Part shown: piece by piece, positions 9,552 to 17,477 of the stretch | How positions within the stretch are numbered: the first letter of the stretch is position 1 | Layout: every line of letters starts with the position of its first letter | Assembly (NCBI GenBank): GCA_965262725.1 | Contig: OZ253555.1 | Location: forward strand, 1,440,001-1,504,000 | Length of the DNA: 64,000 nt | Source of the DNA: Dehalococcoidia bacterium | Lineage (GTDB): Bacteria; Chloroflexota; Dehalococcoidia; UBA2979 | Direction of reading: 5' to 3' | Made by a program: the position numbers and the translations under genes | The notes under the pieces: model-generated | Told to the model about the DNA's origin: nothing | What the model saw: the letters and a program-made list of their open reading frames with translations, nothing else | Databases searched by the model: none

Positions 9552-9555
9552 TCTA

Positions 9556-10883
9556 GGGCACCTCGAAGAACTCGCGATTGTTGATGAAGGTATCGGTGAG
9601 GGCACGAGGGGGCAGAGGGCGTAGCTGAGGAGACCCCAGGGGGTGTGGGTGAGTCCGCGAGAGCATAGGTGAAGCGGGATAATTGACAGTTAAACGGGAC
9701 TGTCAAAGCACCGAACTAGAGGCTGGTGTGAGGTCTGTGGACGGGTGGCGGCAAGCTAGGCCGCGGCAGCCGTACGGCGGTGTTCGAGGTGCGCCAGACG
9801 GCGAATATTGTACGCCAGGTTCTTGAAGCCGATCTGCGTCACTGCCCGCCGCACGCCGATCGTACGGATGTGCGTGCCGCCCATCTCGTTCGTCTGCGAG
9901 CCGAAGATGTGCTCAACCCGGGCCCGTACTTGCGACCATCCCCGGTTGACCGCCTCCTCAGCCGCCGTCAACGGCCGGTTGGCAGCGGCCTTCCGATGGA
10001 TGCGGCTCGTCAGACCTTTCTCCGTGAGCATTGCCTCAATCGCCCGCGACCGATAGGCACGGTCTGCCCACACATCGGGTGACGTGTTCGGAGAGTCGAG
10101 CAGCTGGTCGATCACCTGGCTGTCATGGACCGCGGCATCGGTGACGGCGTAGGAACGCACCAGCTTGTGGCGCCGATCGATGGTGATGTGGTTCTTGTAG
10201 CCGTAGTGACTCTTCCCGTGCTTCTTCGTCCAGCGGGCGTCGAGGTCTTTCTGGGCCAGCTTCGCCGGATTGAAGACCCACTCCGAGGGAATGAGGTCCT
10301 GCTTGAGCGACTCGTTCTCCCGGCGGCTGTTGCGCTGGATCGGCACCGAGACGATCGAGGCGTCGACGATCTGTCCGCCACTGGCGCGGTAGCCCTGGCT
10401 GGCGAGATAGTGGTCGAAGGCCTGGAACAACTCGGCGATGGCGCCCGCCCTGGTCAACTGCTCGCGGTAGAGCCAGAAGGTGGTGGCGTCGGGCACCCGG
10501 CCTTCGATGCCTGTGCCGCAGAAGCGGGAGAAGGAGAGACGGTCGCGGATCTGATACTCAATCTGTTCATCGGAGAGGTTGTAGAGTACGCCGAGTATCA
10601 ATCCCTTGAAGATGACGATTGCGTCCCATGGCTTGCGTCCGGCCGGTGATTTACGCTCTTCTTCGGGCGTGGCCCAGACGGCTTCTAACTGAGGTCTGAA
10701 CTGCTCCCACGGGATGATTTGGTCGAGCTTGGCGAGTGGGTCGCCCTTGGCGTCGAGAGCGTCGTAGCGGTCGTCCACATTGAAGAATCCAAGTTGGCCC
10801 ATATCATCCCCCGTAACCATGACACTGATGGCTACAGTATATCATTCACCATGCCGACGATATAGTCATTCTTCGAAGTGCCC
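9556..10883 (-). mobile_element. Complete IS5 family element
   Basis: 15-bp IR GGGCACCTCGAAGAA / TTCTTCGAAGTGCCC (1 mismatch); TCTA target duplication at 9552-9555 and 10884-10887. Confidence 0.9.
9756..10802 (-). CDS. IS5 family transposase
   Basis: LSDEQIEYQIRDRLSF, VPDATT, IVDASIV, YGYKNH, VWADRAY, RARVEHIFG. Confidence 0.95.
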   Translation of the reverse strand: MGQLGFFNVDDRYDALDAKGDPLAKLDQIIPWEQFRPQLEAVWATPEEERKSPAGRKPWDAIVIFKGLILGVLYNLSDEQIEYQIRDRLSFSRFCGTGIEGRVPDATTFWLYREQLTRAGAIAELFQAFDHYLASQGYRASGGQIVDASIVSVPIQRNSRRENESLKQDLIPSEWVFNPAKLAQKDLDARWTKKHGKSHYGYKNHITIDRRHKLVRSYAVTDAAVHDSQVIDQLLDSPNTSPDVWADRAYRSRAIEAMLTEKGLTSRIHRKAAANRPLTAAEEAVNRGWSQVRARVEHIFGSQTNEMGGTHIRTIGVRRAVTQIGFKNLAYNIRRLAHLEHRRTAAAA

Positions 10884-11189
10884 TCTAGTGTCCCGAGTTG
10901 CAAATGCTGAAAACAATCGCACCGAGCCTCGCAGGCCTGGTCCGCTCAGTGGAGGCTTGGGTCGCAACTGGAAACGAGCACCGGAGGCGCTTCATCTGGC
11001 ACAAGTCCGCGGACCAGATCTTTGAGTAGGGTCAGGGGCTGGCGCGGTGCGAGCCGTAGGCGGTGGCGCATATTGCCAGGCCGGTTTCCCGGTGGCGCCC
11101 ATCTCCACAGCCGTAGCATCGTCCGTCTCCAGCCCCTGCCGCCTCGAACCGGACGTGAGGTTTTCCCTCATCCGGCTCACCGATGCCCT

Positions 11190-13410
11190 TCACCGGGCGG
11201 CATGCGGGGTGCCCCGCCACGGTCGATATGGCCGTGGTGCCACGACGCGCTGTCCAGCTAGCGAGATGAGCCCCAGACGGTCGGCGACGGGAAACGGGTG
11301 CCCGCGATGGCGTCGCCGCCAACGCAACCGCTTCCCCAGCCAGAGTTTGAGTCTCCACATGGCAAACCAGTGCAGGACGTCGAACGCCCTCGCCGAGTTG
11401 CCGTAGCGGAAGTAGCTCATCCAGCCGCGGAGGTAGCGATTGACTTCCTCCACGACCTGCCGGGGACTCAGCAGCAGACGCAACCGCGCCGTGATTTCAC
11501 GGATGCGGTCCCGCGCCCGCTGCATCGCTCGCCGTGAGGGCCAGCGTGCGAGGAACTGGATATTCTTGTTGCGCTTCGCACGTACCCAGCGATGCTCGAA
11601 GCCGAGGAACTCCAGCCCCTCGCCTCCCTCCCGCAGGTGCACGATGCGCGTCTTCTCCGCCTTGAGCTCCAGTCCGAGCTCACCCAGCAGGTCACGCAGC
11701 AGGGCCAACGCCCGCTCCGCTTCCTCCCGGCTCCGGCAGAGCACCACGAGGTCATCCGCATAGCGCACCAGCACGCCATCACCCTTCGCCTCCCAGTCCC
11801 GGTCCAACCGGTGCAGGTAGACATTGGCCAGCAGCGGGGACATCACCCCGCCCTGCGGCGTACCCGTCGCGCTGTGCTGCACGACCCCCGACTCCATCAC
11901 ACCGGCACGCAGCATCGCCCGTACCAGCTTCAGGAGATTGCGGTCGCATATCCGTTCCTCGACGGCCGTCATCAGACGGTCGTGTAGGGTCAGGGGCTGG
12001 CGCGGTGCGAGCCGTAGGCGGTGGCGCATCAGTTCCAAGCCGGTTTCCCGGTGGTGCCCAACTCCACGGCCATAGCAGCGTCCGTCTCCAGCCCCTGCCA
12101 CATCGAACCGGACGTGAGGTTCTCCCTCATCCGGCTCACCGATGCCCTTCACCAGATGGCATGCAGCGCTCCCCACAACGTGGGTCGTGCCTTGGCCAGC
12201 CGGTACAGCATGTGCGGAGAGCCTCGAACCCTACCAAGTGGTTGCTAGCCCCGAGGGGCACTCACCAGTCCACACCCCCAGCAACATGCACGGACAAAGT
12301 AGGGGTCCTTCCCATCACCGGCGGTTATGTTGTCCGTCCGGCTCCAGCGGTACTACGACCCCCTCCGCCACCCTTCCGGCTGGCTGTCCACTTCCCGGCT
12401 CTGACCGGTTATAGGACGCCTCGCTCCGACGCCCTCTCACAGGGTGCCGGGCCGGGGAGGGCTTCTCCGGTTCCCGTCGCTACCTTCCGTACGTTCCACG
12501 TCCCATACGCCGGGAGGTTTCTTGAGGCTGCATTCCAGGATCTTCACCTCGTCCATGGCCTTCGCCCTGACCACCCGGGCTCGGCTCCTCCTTGGTCCTG
12601 TCAATAGACAGGCGAGTCTCACGGCGCGGCAGACTTCGCGTCATGCTGCGGACCGCACGTTTGCTCCCCCTCATAGGGCTCTTGACGTCGGGCTTCGACG
12701 CAGACCGTTTCCCGTCCACGCCGCCGACCTGCTAACGGGCCTCCTGACAGTTACCCGTGCCGGACTCTCACCGGCTGGCAGCAACGAGCATGTCTCCGGA
12801 CCGGTCACGTCATCACGTCACCACCCCTTCGACTTCCGGACGCACGCGGTATCGACTCGAAACACGAGGCGATGTCCGTCTCCACTACCCACCGCCTGCC
12901 CCGCCACGCCTCGTCAATGAGGACCTGCAGGGCGTCATGGGCCGAACGCTTCGGGCGGAAGCCGAAGCTGCATGGCAGGAAGTCGGCCTCGAAGACCGGC
13001 TCCGTCACGAGCTTCAGCGACGCCTGCACGATGCGGTCGCGGACCGAAGGAATCGAGAGCGGGCGCTCTTCCGACCGACCGGGCTTGGGTATCCAGACCC
13101 GGCGGCTCGGCTGCACCCGGTATCTTCCCTCCTTCAGTTCCGTGGCCAGTTCATCCAGCAGGCGCTCCACGCCGTAGCGCTCGACCTCGGCGAGCGTGAC
13201 GCCGTCGATACCGGCTGCGCCGCGATTGCGACGCACCTGCTCCCACGCGCGCTCCAGAATGTCTCTGCGATAAACCTTGTCGTAGAGCGCATGAAAGCGT
13301 CTATTGGGGTCGGCCTTGGCCGCCCGGTAAAGCGTGCGTTGTAGTGTTCGGACCTTGTCTTGGATGGAGTTAGCCGCTTGGGCACTCACCGATTCATCCC
13401 TACTCCCCAC
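11190..13410 (-). CDS. ltrA: Group II intron reverse transcriptase/maturase, join(13410-12846, 11983-11190), 452 aa, no endonuclease domain
   Basis: GAAGIDG, RPLSIPSVRDRIVQ, FGFRPKRS, TPQGGVMSPLLAN, RYADD; spliced junction reads DIASCFESIP-H-DRLM in frame. Confidence 0.92.
11984..12845 (-). ncRNA. ORF-less group II intron (inner, 862 nt) inserted in the RT gene
   Basis: 5' GUGCG at 12845, domains V/VI and 3' ACCCTAC at 11984; paralogous to the outer ribozyme; domain IV keeps only an eroded RT scrap (MLYRLAK). Confidence 0.92.
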
Positions 13411-14004
13411 GCGTGAGCAAAGCAGGGGTCCTTCCCATCACCGGCGGTTGTGTTGTCCGTCCGGCTCAAGCGGTACTACGACCCCCTCCGTCACCCTTCC
13501 GGCTAGCTGCCCACTTCCCGGCTTTGACCGGTTATAGGGCACCTCGCTCCGACACCATCTCGCAGGGTGCCGGGCCGGGGAGGGCTTCTCCCGTTCCCGT
13601 CGCTACCTTCCAAACGTTCCACGCCCCTTACGCCGGGAGGTTCCTTGAGGCTGCAGCGCAACGCGCATTCAGGATCTTCACCTCGTCCATGGCCTTCGCC
13701 CTGAATTGCCGGGCTCGGCTCCTCCACTATCCGTTAACGACGCGGCAGGCTTCGCTTGATGCTGCGGACCGCTTGGTTGCTCCCCCTGATAGGGCTCTTG
13801 ACGTCGGGCTTCGACGTGGACCGTTTCCCGTCCGCGCCGCCGACCTGCTAACGGGCCTCCTGACAGTTACCCGTGCCGGACTCGCACCGGCTGGCAACGA
13901 CGAGCATGTCTCCAGACCGGTTACGTCATCACGTCACCCGCCCTTCGACTTCGGGACACACCAACCTCACCGGATATCTCAATCGCATTTCCAATTCAGG
14001 ACAC

Positions 14005-14187
14005 TAGGGCTATATGAAATTTTCCATACCAGTGATTACGAAGCTCCTCTGTTTCTTCAGCACCGGCGACGTATTTTGCAACACGCGCACACATTTCTTC
14101 AGGAGTCTCGATTACGTCCCCTGTATCGTGGTTCTTCCGTAGGTAACGCTTTTCGAGTACAGTGCGCGCGTTGTCTGTAAGTTCCAA
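14005..14187 (-). pseudogene. nrdJ: Class II (B12-dependent) ribonucleotide reductase N-terminal fragment, cut at the IS630 TA site
   Basis: MELTDNARTVLEKRYLRK...IETPEEMCARVAKYVA; strong RBS GGAGGGAGAGG. Confidence 0.75.
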
Positions 14188-14217
14188 GTAACCTCTCCCT
14201 CCGATTAACGGAGGTAT

Positions 14218-14246
14218 AGTATATCACATTGCAAAGTGTAAGTCAA
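14218..14246 (-). promoter_or_regulatory. Sigma70-type promoter upstream of the nrdJ fragment
   Basis: TTGACT-17 bp-TATACT on the minus strand. Confidence 0.7.
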
Positions 14247-14256
14247 GCACTAAATG

Positions 14257-15498
14257 TTACTCCGCACACGGTCCGAGGCCGGACTTTCGATCCTCAAGTT
14301 TCTTGTCATATATAGAATTGACAAACCGCTCAAAGAAGTCAGCCGTTGCGACCGCTGCCGCTTCTGCGGTCGTGTACGGAATCGGAGCATAAGATAAACG
14401 CACTCTGTTAAGCGACCGCACATAGGCCTCGCCGCAAGCTTCCTTTCCTGTGATTTCTACAAGACTGTTGTAGTTTTTGTGGACCTGCAGAAAGTCGAGA
14501 TCCAAGCAGCTGCCCGAGCCGTCATTACGACCTGTGTCACAAGGCGCATCCACAATTGGATTCCAGGCAAGGTCGACCTTCCAATACCCTTCAATCGTAT
14601 TACACCAGTTGCAAGCAACCCAAGCAGATCCAAAGCTGATGCTTCCGGGAATGAGTTGCTCTTCGTGCTCTAGGATTCGTACAGAGACACCACTGCCTTC
14701 TCTAATCCACGCCAAGTTTTCTTGGTGCTGATGGACAAGTGCGGTGACACAAGAGTCCATTGCTGCTGGAGGTGATACCTCTGTGATGTTTATCTTGGAG
14801 AGCTCTACAGTGTCTACTGACTCCCAACTGTTCTTTGGATCAGTGGTGTAACGGCCGAAGGCTTCCACCAGTTGTGCTTCAAGAGTCTCTGATCGTGGCG
14901 CAAGCCCCCACAGTTGCTGCAGAAGCTTGTCGTCGCGCGGACCAAGTTCACTGTGGAGGGAGACTTTCTTCAGAACTTCGTTGAACTCGTAACACGCCGG
15001 TACCTCTGTGACGCACTTACTGGCGTTCCACCACGAGCCTCGAAAGAACGGAAGATCATTTACACAGTCCGACGCAGGCACAGCCTCGATCGACGCCTGA
15101 ACTGTGGGAGTCGGCGTGCTAGGAGCCTGTGTACGAGGAACAGTCCGACTCAGATAGTCGTTGTGTACCCAACTCTTGCGTCCTCTGTCATCACGAAGCC
15201 ACACCCACTCGGCACAAGTCTGTTCACCCTCTCTGATAACGGTAACTTCAGCACCTTCAGGGATGCCACGCCCTCTGTGATCTGGATCGCGCATATCTTC
15301 TCTGCAGCCATGGCGGACCGCTACGTTATCACCGCCTGTGTCGACTATGTAAGCGATATCGTCTTTCTCCCAAACGTCGGGAGTAGGCGTTGCGACTGTG
15401 GGTGTTGCAGTTGGCGGCTCTCGCATATCATCTACGTCCACACAGCCAAAGCTGAGTGCTCCAAGAATTGTCACAAGTGCAATCACGAGACGAGCCAC
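14257..15498 (-). CDS. Low-GC putative lipoprotein with SH3-like segment
   Basis: RBS AAGGAG, hydrophobic signal ending SFGC, PT-rich linkers, WVWLRDDRGRKSWVHNDYL; GC clearly below the flanks. Confidence 0.6.
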   Translation of the reverse strand: MARLVIALVTILGALSFGCVDVDDMREPPTATPTVATPTPDVWEKDDIAYIVDTGGDNVAVRHGCREDMRDPDHRGRGIPEGAEVTVIREGEQTCAEWVWLRDDRGRKSWVHNDYLSRTVPRTQAPSTPTPTVQASIEAVPASDCVNDLPFFRGSWWNASKCVTEVPACYEFNEVLKKVSLHSELGPRDDKLLQQLWGLAPRSETLEAQLVEAFGRYTTDPKNSWESVDTVELSKINITEVSPPAAMDSCVTALVHQHQENLAWIREGSGVSVRILEHEEQLIPGSISFGSAWVACNWCNTIEGYWKVDLAWNPIVDAPCDTGRNDGSGSCLDLDFLQVHKNYNSLVEITGKEACGEAYVRSLNRVRLSYAPIPYTTAEAAAVATADFFERFVNSIYDKKLEDRKSGLGPCAE

Positions 15499-15606
15499 TG
15501 TCTTCTCCTTCACTACTCGGGAGGGTCGCGAGGGCGCACGATCTTCGGAGCGCCGCTCCGTCGTTTCACGTGCAGGACGCCCGGTGCCGGAATTAGGTTT
15601 GAAGAC

Positions 15607-15699: not shown

Positions 15700-16665
15700 T
15701 CATGACGAGGCCCTGTGACGCCGCACGTTCAGGGCCTTCCACTCCAGGAGCGGTTGCGACCGTATCCGTTGCTGGAGCGCCGGCTCGGAGGTCAAGATGG
15801 TCGAGTCGATCTCTCCGTCGTCGAGCAGCCGGTCAAGGAACGCTCGCTCCGCATCGGTGAACGGCAGTAGCGCGGATAGCCCCTGCTGGCAACCGTCGAC
15901 GAGCACCGGGCCATAGCCGGCCGCTTCGCTCGACTCGACCCTGGCGCGGAGCGTCGGCCTGAGCTGACTCGCGAGTTCCGCCGGGTCGAAGGCCACGTCG
16001 TCGACCGAGACCGTGCGCCAGTCCCTGCGACTCATCGCCCCATACACGACGAAGGCGGTTCTGAGCCGGCCGAGGTCGAGGGAGTCGATGGAGAAAATGA
16101 GATGGCTGTCGAACAGGTCGCGGGCGCGCCGACGCGACAGCAGTGCCGCCAGCTTCCCAGCGGCAAGCTCGTGCACATCCACGACCGGGACGTCGGTCGC
16201 CTGCCAACTCCCGACCCGATGCGAGTCCATCGTTGTGATGGGCCACAGGGGTACGCGGTACATGTAGTTGACGTCCACGTCGATTCTGCCGCCCTGCCCG
16301 GAAGCCGCCGGATAGCGCAGCGTCCACTTGCCTCCCGCGTGCTCGCTCGCGAGCTGTCTGCCAGTCAAATCCTCTCGGCCGAAGACAGCCCGGAGCGCGT
16401 CCTCCAGCCTCGGGCGCTCCTCCAACATGACCTCCCTGCTCTCGGTGCCCACGTAGTTCAGGTCGATGTCGACGGAGAGCCTGGGCACGTCAAAGACGAA
16501 GAGGTTCAGCGCTGTCCCGCCCTTCAGGGCCAGCTTTCCCTTCAGGAACGGATGAAGCTGAATCGCGTCGAGCAGCCCGAGCAGATGGGCGACCTTTTCC
16601 AGCATGTCTGCCCGGAAGCCCGTCGCCTCGGCATCCGCGACGAGCTGCTCAGGGGAGACCCTCAC
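15700..16665 (-). CDS. abiEii: AbiEii family nucleotidyltransferase toxin
   Basis: LKGGTALN...RLSVDIDL...AGKLAAL...RARDLFD; GTG start overlaps the antitoxin stop. Confidence 0.9.
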   Translation of the reverse strand: MRVSPEQLVADAEATGFRADMLEKVAHLLGLLDAIQLHPFLKGKLALKGGTALNLFVFDVPRLSVDIDLNYVGTESREVMLEERPRLEDALRAVFGREDLTGRQLASEHAGGKWTLRYPAASGQGGRIDVDVNYMYRVPLWPITTMDSHRVGSWQATDVPVVDVHELAAGKLAALLSRRRARDLFDSHLIFSIDSLDLGRLRTAFVVYGAMSRRDWRTVSVDDVAFDPAELASQLRPTLRARVESSEAAGYGPVLVDGCQQGLSALLPFTDAERAFLDRLLDDGEIDSTILTSEPALQQRIRSQPLLEWKALNVRRHRASS

Positions 16666-17477
16666 GCGACTTCCTCCCAGGCCCGGTCCACTACCTCCCG
16701 TGGTGCTACCAGGTTCCACTCGGGCACGAAACGCCCTCGGCCATTCGTCGCGGCGTCGACGTAGTGCGGCTGTCGCGGCCGGTGTTGGCGGAGCGTCTGC
16801 AGGTGGCGCGACTGGACCATGAGCACCTCGCGGTGCTGCTCCAGGAAGAAGCCCACCTTTGCGGCGGTCGTCGCGTTGCAAAGCAGGAGCGCGTAGTCCA
16901 CGACCTGCTCGATGTTGAAGAACTCCACCGATTCCAGCGAGCGCCAGATCTCCTCCCAGCCTCCCGAGTGGCGCGGGCGATCGAGCACGTCTACCAGCGT
17001 GCGCTCAAGGCTCGTGACCCTCACCGGGAGGCCGGCGCGCTCCGCAGTCAGAACACCGTGGGTCGTATTGCGTGAACGGGCGAGGGCCTCCTGGAATCGC
17101 GTTCCCCGGAAGACATGGGAGCGGAACGTCAGCGGCGACGAGGGGCGCGCCGCCAGATAGGTGAGATGCTGCCACGCCGAGTAGGCTCGGTCATGGAACT
17201 CAAGCGCCGTGTGGTGCGACAGGATGGCGTCAGCAGTGAGCCGCGACGCGATCAGGTAGGGATCCACGGGGAAGGATTCCGGGTCGGCTCCCGGCGGGAC
17301 CACGGCGTACAGGCCGCGGCGCACTCGCAGGAGCCGACCGGCCTTCACGTGGTAGCCGAGTAGTGTCTCCCGGGTCCTGGCGCTGGCGCGGCCGCGCGAC
17401 GCGAGGTGCACAGCCAGCTCATCGGTGGTGAACACGGGATGCCGGCGAAAAAACTGGTCGTGCTTGACGGTTGGCAT
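16662..17477 (-). CDS. abiEi: AbiEi family antitoxin/transcriptional regulator
   Basis: N-terminal wHTH (LLRVRRGLY), LSHHTALEFH, VTSLERTLVDVLDRP. Confidence 0.88.
   Translation of the reverse strand: MPTVKHDQFFRRHPVFTTDELAVHLASRGRASARTRETLLGYHVKAGRLLRVRRGLYAVVPPGADPESFPVDPYLIASRLTADAILSHHTALEFHDRAYSAWQHLTYLAARPSSPLTFRSHVFRGTRFQEALARSRNTTHGVLTAERAGLPVRVTSLERTLVDVLDRPRHSGGWEEIWRSLESVEFFNIEQVVDYALLLCNATTAAKVGFFLEQHREVLMVQSRHLQTLRQHRPRQPHYVDAATNGRGRFVPEWNLVAPREVVDRAWEEVA

Follow-up and report, generated by a model that had tools for sequence, protein, structure and literature searches.

Nested group II introns at the locus

The stretch of DNA analysed here (the window; 64,000 nucleotides (nt) of contig OZ253555.1, positions 1,440,001 to 1,504,000, from a Dehalococcoidia bacterium) contains a group II twintron on its minus strand. 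An outer intron, A, encodes a reverse transcriptase (RT), and the RT gene is interrupted by a second, related intron, B, which has no intact RT open reading frame (ORF) of its own. Coordinates are window positions unless a genome coordinate is given; the genome (G000) is one contig of 3.67 Mb with 70.6% G+C. The parts of the twintron are listed below.

11026-13961, minus strand: twintron A+B; A is 2074 nt without B, GTGTG...CCCTAC
11984-12845, minus strand: inner ORF-less intron B, 862 nt, GTGCG...CCCTAC
12846-13410, minus strand: 5' part of the RT gene, codons 1-188 and the first base of codon 189; GTG start at 13410
11190-11983, minus strand: 3' part of the RT gene, remainder of codon 189 to codon 452 and stop; YADD motif and maturase (X) domain
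11146-11178, minus strand: outer domain V (Rfam match and fold)
12105-12137, minus strand: inner domain V (Rfam match and fold)
11026-11141, minus strand: outer domain VI, an extended stem with an insertion in its distal part; the bulged A is 11032, seven nt before the 3' end
11984-12099, minus strand: inner domain VI, an extended stem with an insertion of ~95 nt in its distal part; the bulged A is 11990, seven nt before the 3' end
12140-12300, minus strand: inner domain IV remnant, with the eroded start and end of an RT ORF

Searches with Rfam models revealed two complete minus-strand matches to RF02003 (group-II-D1D4-4; gathering score 49), one of 95.3 bits at 13757-13893 and one of 102.8 bits at 12641-12777. 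The two domain V hairpins were matched by RF00029 and plastid D5 models, and in both introns these matches and the folds agree with the domain V pattern of a 34-nt hairpin with the AGC triad and a 2-nt bulge. The intron ends, GUGUG...CUAC for A and GUGCG...CUAC for B, follow the GUGYG/AY rule and are the same in all copies. The twintron measures 2936 nt, and one contig from a public sequencing run (X9) skips exactly that length. A whole intron thus lies inside another, and its precise removal restores the outer intron.

Folding of domains V and VI gave -83.7 kcal/mol (z-score -4.3) for the outer intron and -82.2 kcal/mol (z-score -4.9) for the inner intron, with a bulged A at position -7 of the minimum-energy fold in A and B alike. 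Domain VI is unusually long (~115 nt), and the ~95-nt insertion common to A and B is unusual among group II introns. Alternative 3' ends at 11113 (outer) and ~12073 (inner), taken from the Rfam Intron_gpII match, were rejected on two grounds: 11026 and 11984 are where the empty sites and the precise skips end, and it is at these same positions that the long stem of domain VI, with its bulged A, closes. The Rfam D5-D6 model (41.5 bits, gathering score 40; 11113-11180 on the minus strand, and ~12073) stops at a small domain VI-like hairpin (...GCUAC) lying within the actual, much longer domain VI.

Restoration of the RT reading frame

Joining 12846-13410 to 11190-11983 in silico produced a frame of 1359 nt, 452 codons and one terminal stop, without an internal stop. 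The junction reads ASCFESIP/HDRLMTAV (the slash marks the insertion point) and falls in codon 189, in the fingers/palm region of the RT. The RVT_1 profile is covered at positions 1-83 by the 5' half and 90-204 by the 3' half, and GIIM was also matched. Likewise, TIGR04416 is covered at positions 2-137 and 140-352; the halves score 172.4 bits and 214.5 bits, each short of the 300-bit cut-off owing to the split in the gene. Since the halves abut in both RVT_1 and TIGR04416, the cut is precise. The nearest solved structures are the group II intron RTs 7uim, 6ar1 and 6me0. Family searches of the RT, which found RVT_1, GIIM and TIGR04416, gave no match to an endonuclease domain. An alternative in-frame GTG, preceded by a GGAG-like stretch, is present at 13389.

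In the unspliced sequence the frame from 13410 ends after 13 codons of B. Judged by its reading frame, the unspliced twintron cannot yield a functional RT, and precise removal of B restores the RT of 452 amino acids (aa). Two statements of the initial annotation, which had been made from the letters of the window, are thereby upheld: that two paralogous ribozymes are nested on the minus strand, and that removal of 11984-12845 leaves an unbroken 452-aa RT.

An ORF of 328 aa (11190-12176, minus strand) starts at a GTG inside B, in the domain IV/V region, and continues in frame into the 3' part of the RT gene. Translated from unspliced RNA, it might produce a protein that lacks the RT N-terminus but has RT motifs 4-7 and the maturase domain; equally, it may be a chance open frame in G+C-rich DNA.

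Kinship of A and B and loss of the ORF in B

Comparison of the two introns over domains 1 to 3 (D1-D3) revealed 92% mean column identity (blastn, 86.7% over 562 columns with gaps), and the last 181 nt are 91.7% identical. B aligns to A at positions 1-558, patchily at 552-657 (the ORF start) and then at 1879-2074, and ~1.2 kb of the ORF is missing from B. In the domain IV remnant, 11 nt around the likely start codon are the same as in A. The RT scrap in B is 72% identical to the 5' part of the ORF of an intron in a relative (G008), and is therefore a true ORF remnant, as first described from the sequence. B is thus found to be an ORF-deletion derivative of a relative of A that retains remnants of the ORF.

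Exon pairing and targeting

The exon-binding sites (EBS) of the two introns and the intron-binding sites (IBS) in their exons were located as follows.

13704-13708, minus strand: outer EBS1 CAAUU, in the 9-nt loop GGCAAUUCA
13728-13733, minus strand: outer EBS2 CGGAUA
13962-13976, minus strand: outer IBS1 GGUUG (13962-13966) and IBS2 UAUCCG (13971-13976)
12570-12574, minus strand: inner EBS1 GUGGU, in the 9-nt loop GGGUGGUCA
12613-12618, minus strand: inner EBS2 GACUCG, 5' of a small hairpin absent from the outer intron
12846-12859, minus strand: inner IBS1 ACCGC (12846-12850) and IBS2 CGAGUC (12854-12859), in RT codons F-E-S-I-P

In the outer intron EBS1 and IBS1 form five of five pairs (three Watson-Crick, two G-U) and EBS2 and IBS2 six of six; in the inner intron the corresponding numbers are five of five (four Watson-Crick) and six of six. 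Except for one T/G and one T/C variant, the 12 occupied sites share one outer IBS sequence. A and B diverge most in two blocks, the variable segment that holds EBS2 and the 9-nt hairpin loop that holds EBS1.

A comparative alignment of five lineages, namely A, B, a third family of the same genome (C) and homologues in the genomes G003 and G018, gave an RNAalifold consensus of 164 pairs, 22 of them with compensatory changes. In this fold EBS2 is unpaired, and a 4-bp stem with one compensatory change closes the loop that contains EBS1. In all five lineages the EBS1 bases, which occupy matching columns of the alignment, pair with the final four to five bases of the lineage's own 5' exon, and a 5-6-nt EBS2 with the same starting offset pairs with the exon at -13 to -15. 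The pairs and coordinates of both sites as originally given are thus all confirmed, with co-variation across the lineages. The alignment and pairing support the view that B was re-targeted, through its changed EBS1 and EBS2, to the RT coding sequence. Inspection of the lineage alignment by eye gave no convincing column for an EBS3/delta pairing with the first 3' exon base; this base is A at the RT homing site, and at the 12 sites of B outside the RT genes it is A in six, G in two, T in two and C in two.

Copies of A, B and C in the genome

A total of 28 copies of B were found in the genome. Of these, 24 are complete, with 100% identity, another is truncated at 857 nt, and the remaining three are interrupted by other elements. 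A is present in 12 copies; all of them hold B in the same place, and end to end the twintrons are 99.9-100% identical. Variant sites among the copies number three in A and none in B, a difference that is not significant. Family C is 77-81% identical to A and comprises three ORF-bearing copies and one 340-nt fragment; each of the three carries an identical B at the homologous codon. B is identical in A and C despite the 77-81% likeness of these two families, and separate recent homing events are therefore indicated. Overall, 15 of 15 A/C ORFs are interrupted at the same codon, which constitutes repeated site-specific insertion at one ORF position. In seven of the 12 twintrons removal of B still gives an intact RT frame. 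The multi-copy nature of the system, like the IS630 homing site of A described below, goes beyond the initial annotation.

A tblastn search of the genome yielded no match of at least 70% identity across RT residues 188/189, hence the genome contains no uninterrupted A/C-type RT gene. The proposal of the initial annotation that the RT is made only after inner splicing follows directly from the stop 13 codons into B, and this survey strengthens it.

Two loci show further nesting. At G000:C1:549500-551223, two identical copies of B stand head to tail in one twintron (L017, L018); the 5' exon of the upstream copy is the normal one, and the downstream copy is preceded by the 3' end of the first. 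This arrangement points to a second round of homing, into a site that B had already filled. At G000:C1:732582-737446 (L026, L050) a three-level nest is present: a C intron holds B in its RT gene, and B holds a third intron in its domain V. The third-level intron is 1923 nt long, matches RF02005 (152.6 bits) and has an intact 499-aa RT/maturase ORF in the same orientation; its end is apparently ...CCGCGAA, not AY. The mobile load is very high for a genome of 3.67 Mb: besides the 28 B, 12 A and four C copies, the genome has at least 15 introns from other families and ~14 IS630 copies, plus IS630 remnants, and insertion sequence (IS) elements of the IS21 (2.6 kb), IS256/Mutator (1.4 kb) and IS5 types have repeatedly hit introns.

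Ectopic insertions of B

Twelve copies of B lie outside the A/C RT genes. Their 5' flanks share TCGAG, a spacer of 3-5 nt and NCYGC immediately before the insertion point, and substitutions at these targets keep G-U or A-U pairing with EBS1 GUGGU and EBS2 GACUCG. The 12 sites are 12 independent confirmations of the targeting rule, and the search for free-standing copies with the same IBS that had been recommended at the outset is thereby answered positively. A Pfam-recognised gene could be assigned to seven of the 12 sites (five host genes, one RT gene of another group II intron and one IS630 transposase gene), two others that were tested gave no family, and those at 291159, 1963038 and 2536486 were left out of the assignment. 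The seven genes and the orientation of B in them are as follows.

RNase_T-type exonuclease: B in sense
Cadherin-domain protein: B in sense
DUF429 protein: B in sense
RT of another group II intron family: B in sense
Phosphotriesterase: B in antisense
Histidine kinase: B in antisense
IS630 transposase: B in antisense

The copy in the RT gene of another family (G000:C1:1524130-1524991, L011; RT 38-40% identical to that of A) is inserted at codons IYESG/YGF, which is not the homologous F-E-S-I-P site, and an IS5 copy lies 28 nt upstream.

The homing site of A and replication-strand bias

The flanks of all 12 A copies are the same and represent the last ~190 nt of an IS630-family element. Full copies of this element are ~1180 nt long with DDE_3 and HTH domains, and the transposase of a full-length copy (L020) scored 272.7 bits with NF033545 (cut-off 100). 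A is antisense to the transposase and lies 43 nt before the end of its frame (SADQILD/NL..SGH-stop). Five occupied sites are in full IS630 elements and seven in a short remnant subfamily; 14 true empty IS630 sites with an intact IBS are also present in the genome. The window itself holds an IS630 remnant of ~190 nt only, in the two parts given below.

13962-14008, minus strand: 5' flank of A, IS630-type remnant end, antisense to the transposase frame; a 46-49-nt repeat at the other copies
10885-11025, minus strand: 3' flank of A, the rest of the ~190-nt IS630-type remnant; the plus strand encodes ..FIWHKSADQIFE, the transposase C-terminus

Cumulative GC skew placed the origin at ~0.40 Mb and the terminus at ~2.51 Mb. 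For 11 of the 12 ectopic B copies the sense strand is the G-rich strand of the replichore concerned (binomial p = 0.006); the single exception is 26 kb past the skew maximum. Occupied A sites are co-oriented in 10 cases and anti-oriented in two, against five and nine for empty IS630 sites (Fisher p = 0.021). The count of empty sites drops five of 19 fuzzy pattern matches that are not IS630 ends; with these included it is 7 to 12 (p = 0.024). The twintron in the window is one of the two anti-oriented A copies. From this analysis, the bias is as would be expected for an endonuclease-less RT that primes on nascent lagging strands.

Relatives and public sequencing runs

The RT is uninterrupted at codon 189 in nine loci of other genomes. 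One of the nine, in a same-genus genome (G003), is a full 2073-nt homologue of A with 87% identity over 2074 nt and an open RT-containing frame of 472 residues. A search of five relatives with the B-specific segment found no B-like ORF-less element, the only match being the 72% one to the ORF of the G008 intron. Uninterrupted RT genes in relatives, together with the lack of B in the five searched, indicate that B arose or arrived in the lineage of G000.

Of 24 listed sequencing runs, four were examined: X19 (an RNA library), X20 (guessed to be RNA), and X8 and X9 (kind unspecified). Contigs in X8 and X9 skip exactly 11984-12845 (862 nt); one such X9 contig has no differences over 145 nt and reaches only 23 nt beyond the joint. 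These skips indicate that a B-less form exists somewhere, as DNA or RNA.

Proposed mechanism and alternative explanations

By sequence, A is a homing retroelement and B is an ORF-deleted, re-targeted sibling of A. We propose that B gates the RT, with the twintron working as described below; we assign this explanation as a whole a probability of about 0.8. The A/C-type RT would splice and mobilise B in trans, which is supported by the sequence kinship and by the retained start region of domain IV, where B partly keeps what is likely the RT-binding region. RT synthesis would depend on prior excision of B, so that RT output is limited by that excision, and the excision in turn would probably depend on the RT or on basal self-splicing. 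A and B alike would enter new sites at replication forks by reverse splicing, with the lagging-strand template as their target. B would behave as a hyperparasite for which the F-E-S-I-P codons of the sibling's RT gene are a renewable safe homing site, and it would also retrotranspose to look-alike sites in host genes.

Several observations weigh against this proposal. In single-sequence thermodynamic folds of D1-D3, four of the five EBS1 bases have an unpaired probability of 0.01-0.17 in both introns, and only the comparative fold leaves EBS1 in a loop. The fold check that the initial annotation had suggested therefore came out in two ways: EBS1 is looped and EBS2 unpaired in the comparative fold, and EBS1 is mostly paired in the single-sequence folds. 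Our placement of EBS1 rests on the comparative fold, exon co-variation and the ectopic sites, which were weighted above the single-sequence folds. A could have spread before the arrival of B, and its strand bias is therefore no proof of RT made from twintrons; gene orientation may also contribute to the bias, though B is found both sense and antisense to genes. The B-less form in X8 and X9 may simply be a DNA allele. One contig of 263 nt in X19 is identical to 12432-12694 and one of 179 nt in X20 to 12204-12382; otherwise these two runs gave only short domain V look-alikes and no spliced joint, a result that demonstrates neither transcription nor its absence. Lastly, five of the 12 twintrons carry further insertions of IS21, IS256 or IS5 type and all three C copies are damaged or nested further, so that the system may be decaying.

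This decay, the interruption of all 15 cognate RT genes, the lack of a spliced RNA joint in X19 and X20, and five correctly oriented IS630 sites that are still empty despite a perfect IBS would all fit a family that has been locked off, in which B inactivated every cognate RT gene and the copies are decaying fossils of a very recent burst. We consider this unlikely. Many group II introns self-splice at a basal rate, the tandem B-B copies represent continued homing into an occupied site, and the 24 identical full-length B copies and seven restorable RT frames would make such a lock extremely recent. Somewhat more doubtful still is a self-sustaining on/off switch formed by the A/B/C family, in which cells that hold RT keep excising B and cells without RT restart by rare self-splicing. 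If true, B would be a hyperparasite that throttles its host retroelement, and the host genes with B in sense (those of the RNase_T-type exonuclease, the cadherin-domain protein and the DUF429 protein) would be tied to the switch.

It is possible, though less likely than not, that the twintron moves as a unit, the composite A+B RNA reverse-splicing into IS630 sites with B still inside. The presence of B in all 12 A copies and the near-identity of the twintrons are compatible with it, and composite mobility was named as a possible route by Mohr et al. 2010 in the part of their paper considered here (PMC2882425). The same part of that paper interprets identical inner introns as separate insertions. 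Moreover, B is identical inside the diverged C and therefore certainly homes alone, the tandem B-B points the same way, and an A-type RT sequence without B is present in X9 (the contig with 145 nt on one side of the joint and 23 nt on the other). One route does not preclude the other. It is improbable that B is serviced by an unrelated intact group II RT, in which case interruption of the A/C RT would cost B nothing. The genome has at least 12 RT genes of other families (37-40% identity) that are uninterrupted, one of them inside a B copy; these could in principle supply a maturase, which also counts against our proposal. Their introns are of different RNA types, for example RF02005, whereas the B ribozyme is 86-92% identical to A and keeps the 11 identical nt around the start codon of A, where intron RTs usually bind. 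Cross-mobilisation in Thermosynechococcus elongatus was demonstrated between RTs with 84-100% identity (PMC2882425, in part). Finally, a mis-join of two similar repeats, which the initial annotation had named as an outcome that would overturn it, has a negligible probability. Introns that are 86-92% alike and highly repeated are typical assembler trouble, but the join is base-precise at canonical intron ends, restores the reading frame, fits the EBS/IBS rules and recurs at 15 loci with different flanks (12 of A and three of the diverged family, the latter with exons 77-81% alike) in a genome of one contig.

Surroundings of the twintron in the window

An IS5-family element of ~1330 nt (9555-10884, minus strand) is inserted in the IS630-type remnant 141 nt downstream of the twintron; its transposase (9759-10820) scored 271 bits with NF033581, and five further copies in the genome are 99.8-100% identical. 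On the other side, 13999-15600 (minus strand) is a patch of low G+C content (48-57%, against ~66% around it). It contains a 63-aa N-terminal fragment of a ribonucleotide reductase (PF00317, E = 3e-14), cut off by the IS630 remnant, and a 459-aa ORF with a weak SH3_3 match; the patch looks like foreign DNA or a degraded gene. A scan for promoters gave one sigma-70-like site at 14246-14218 (minus strand) against 0.7 expected by chance, which is not evidence for a promoter. The match consists of TTGACT, a 17-nt spacer and TATACT with an upstream TG, and lies upstream of the reductase fragment in the orientation of the twintron. Further on, a 393-aa ORF (15703-16881, minus strand) has an AbiEii nucleotidyltransferase toxin domain (PF08843, E = 1e-33), a domain typical of type IV toxin-antitoxin or abortive-infection pairs.

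Significance and comparison with known systems

ORF-less group II introns inside the RT genes of their siblings are known from very few prokaryotes, and such introns are models for intron proliferation and for shared splicing machinery. The A/B system is a clean and very young example, with all cognate RT genes occupied, no bypass by an internal start, and both a tandem insertion and a three-level nest. The 12 natural off-target sites define the targeting rule, and empty and occupied homing sites differ in their replication orientation. An annotation pipeline that relies on intact RT genes will overlook the intron family with the most copies in this genome. Should the organism or its DNA be obtainable, the locus would allow a direct test of how a parasite intron and its host intron depend on each other.

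The comparisons that follow draw on parts of the cited papers. Endonuclease-less bacterial group II introns use replication forks, according to a review (PMC4424553), and the replication-strand orientation bias of group II introns was surveyed in PMC8919778. A, of the Rfam D1D4-4 type, resembles these introns in an RT without endonuclease and a strong replication-strand bias.

In Methanosarcina acetivorans, related group II introns serve as site-specific homing targets for one another at several levels (review, PMC4424553). As in the present genome, ORF-less and RT-encoding introns home into related introns with no coding exons around them, and the idea of a perpetual homing site put forward in that review applies to B too. 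The Methanosarcina system is archaeal, with up to five levels, whereas B also has its 12 ectopic copies, several of them in host genes. The initial annotation had cited Methanosarcina as the source of the concept; this precedent holds, and a closer one is found in Thermosynechococcus elongatus (PMC2882425). A bacterial group II twintron has also been reported from Trichodesmium erythraeum (Pfreundt and Hess 2015, PMC4649490). Sequential splicing, inner intron first, was demonstrated experimentally there, and the same order is required for A/B. That twintron lies in a host protein-coding gene, and the part of the report compared here does not describe it as an ORF-less intron in a sibling RT gene.

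The TeI3/TeI4 twintrons of T. elongatus (Mohr, Ghanem and Lambowitz 2010, PMC2882425) share most features with A/B. The ORF-less introns there arose by one large domain IV deletion and keep N- and C-terminal ORF remnants, their EBS have diverged, they sit in the ORF of a sibling and their inner copies are identical. ORF-less copies outnumber ORF-bearing ones, and some introns target an insertion sequence. T. elongatus ORF-less introns are mobilised in trans; for B we infer this from kinship. The insertion in T. elongatus lies between the first two ATGs, so that the RT can be started at the second ATG without splicing, and two of eight ORFs are continuous. Unlike this, B lies in codon 189 in the middle of the RT, with no bypass. 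The systems differ further in the host phylum, here that of the Dehalococcoidia, and in the RT without an endonuclease domain, and the present system is known from sequence alone.

The A/B/C system was undescribed in the literature searched on group II twintrons and ORF-less introns, on Methanosarcina nests and on Dehalococcoidia, which is not proof that it is unpublished; comparable cases may stand in the supplements of PMC2882425 and PMC8919778, outside that literature. Against these precedents, it is unusual that no intact cognate RT gene is left in the genome. It also differs from them in the insertion in the middle of the RT, the saturation of all cognate RT genes, the host and the IS630-end homing site of A.

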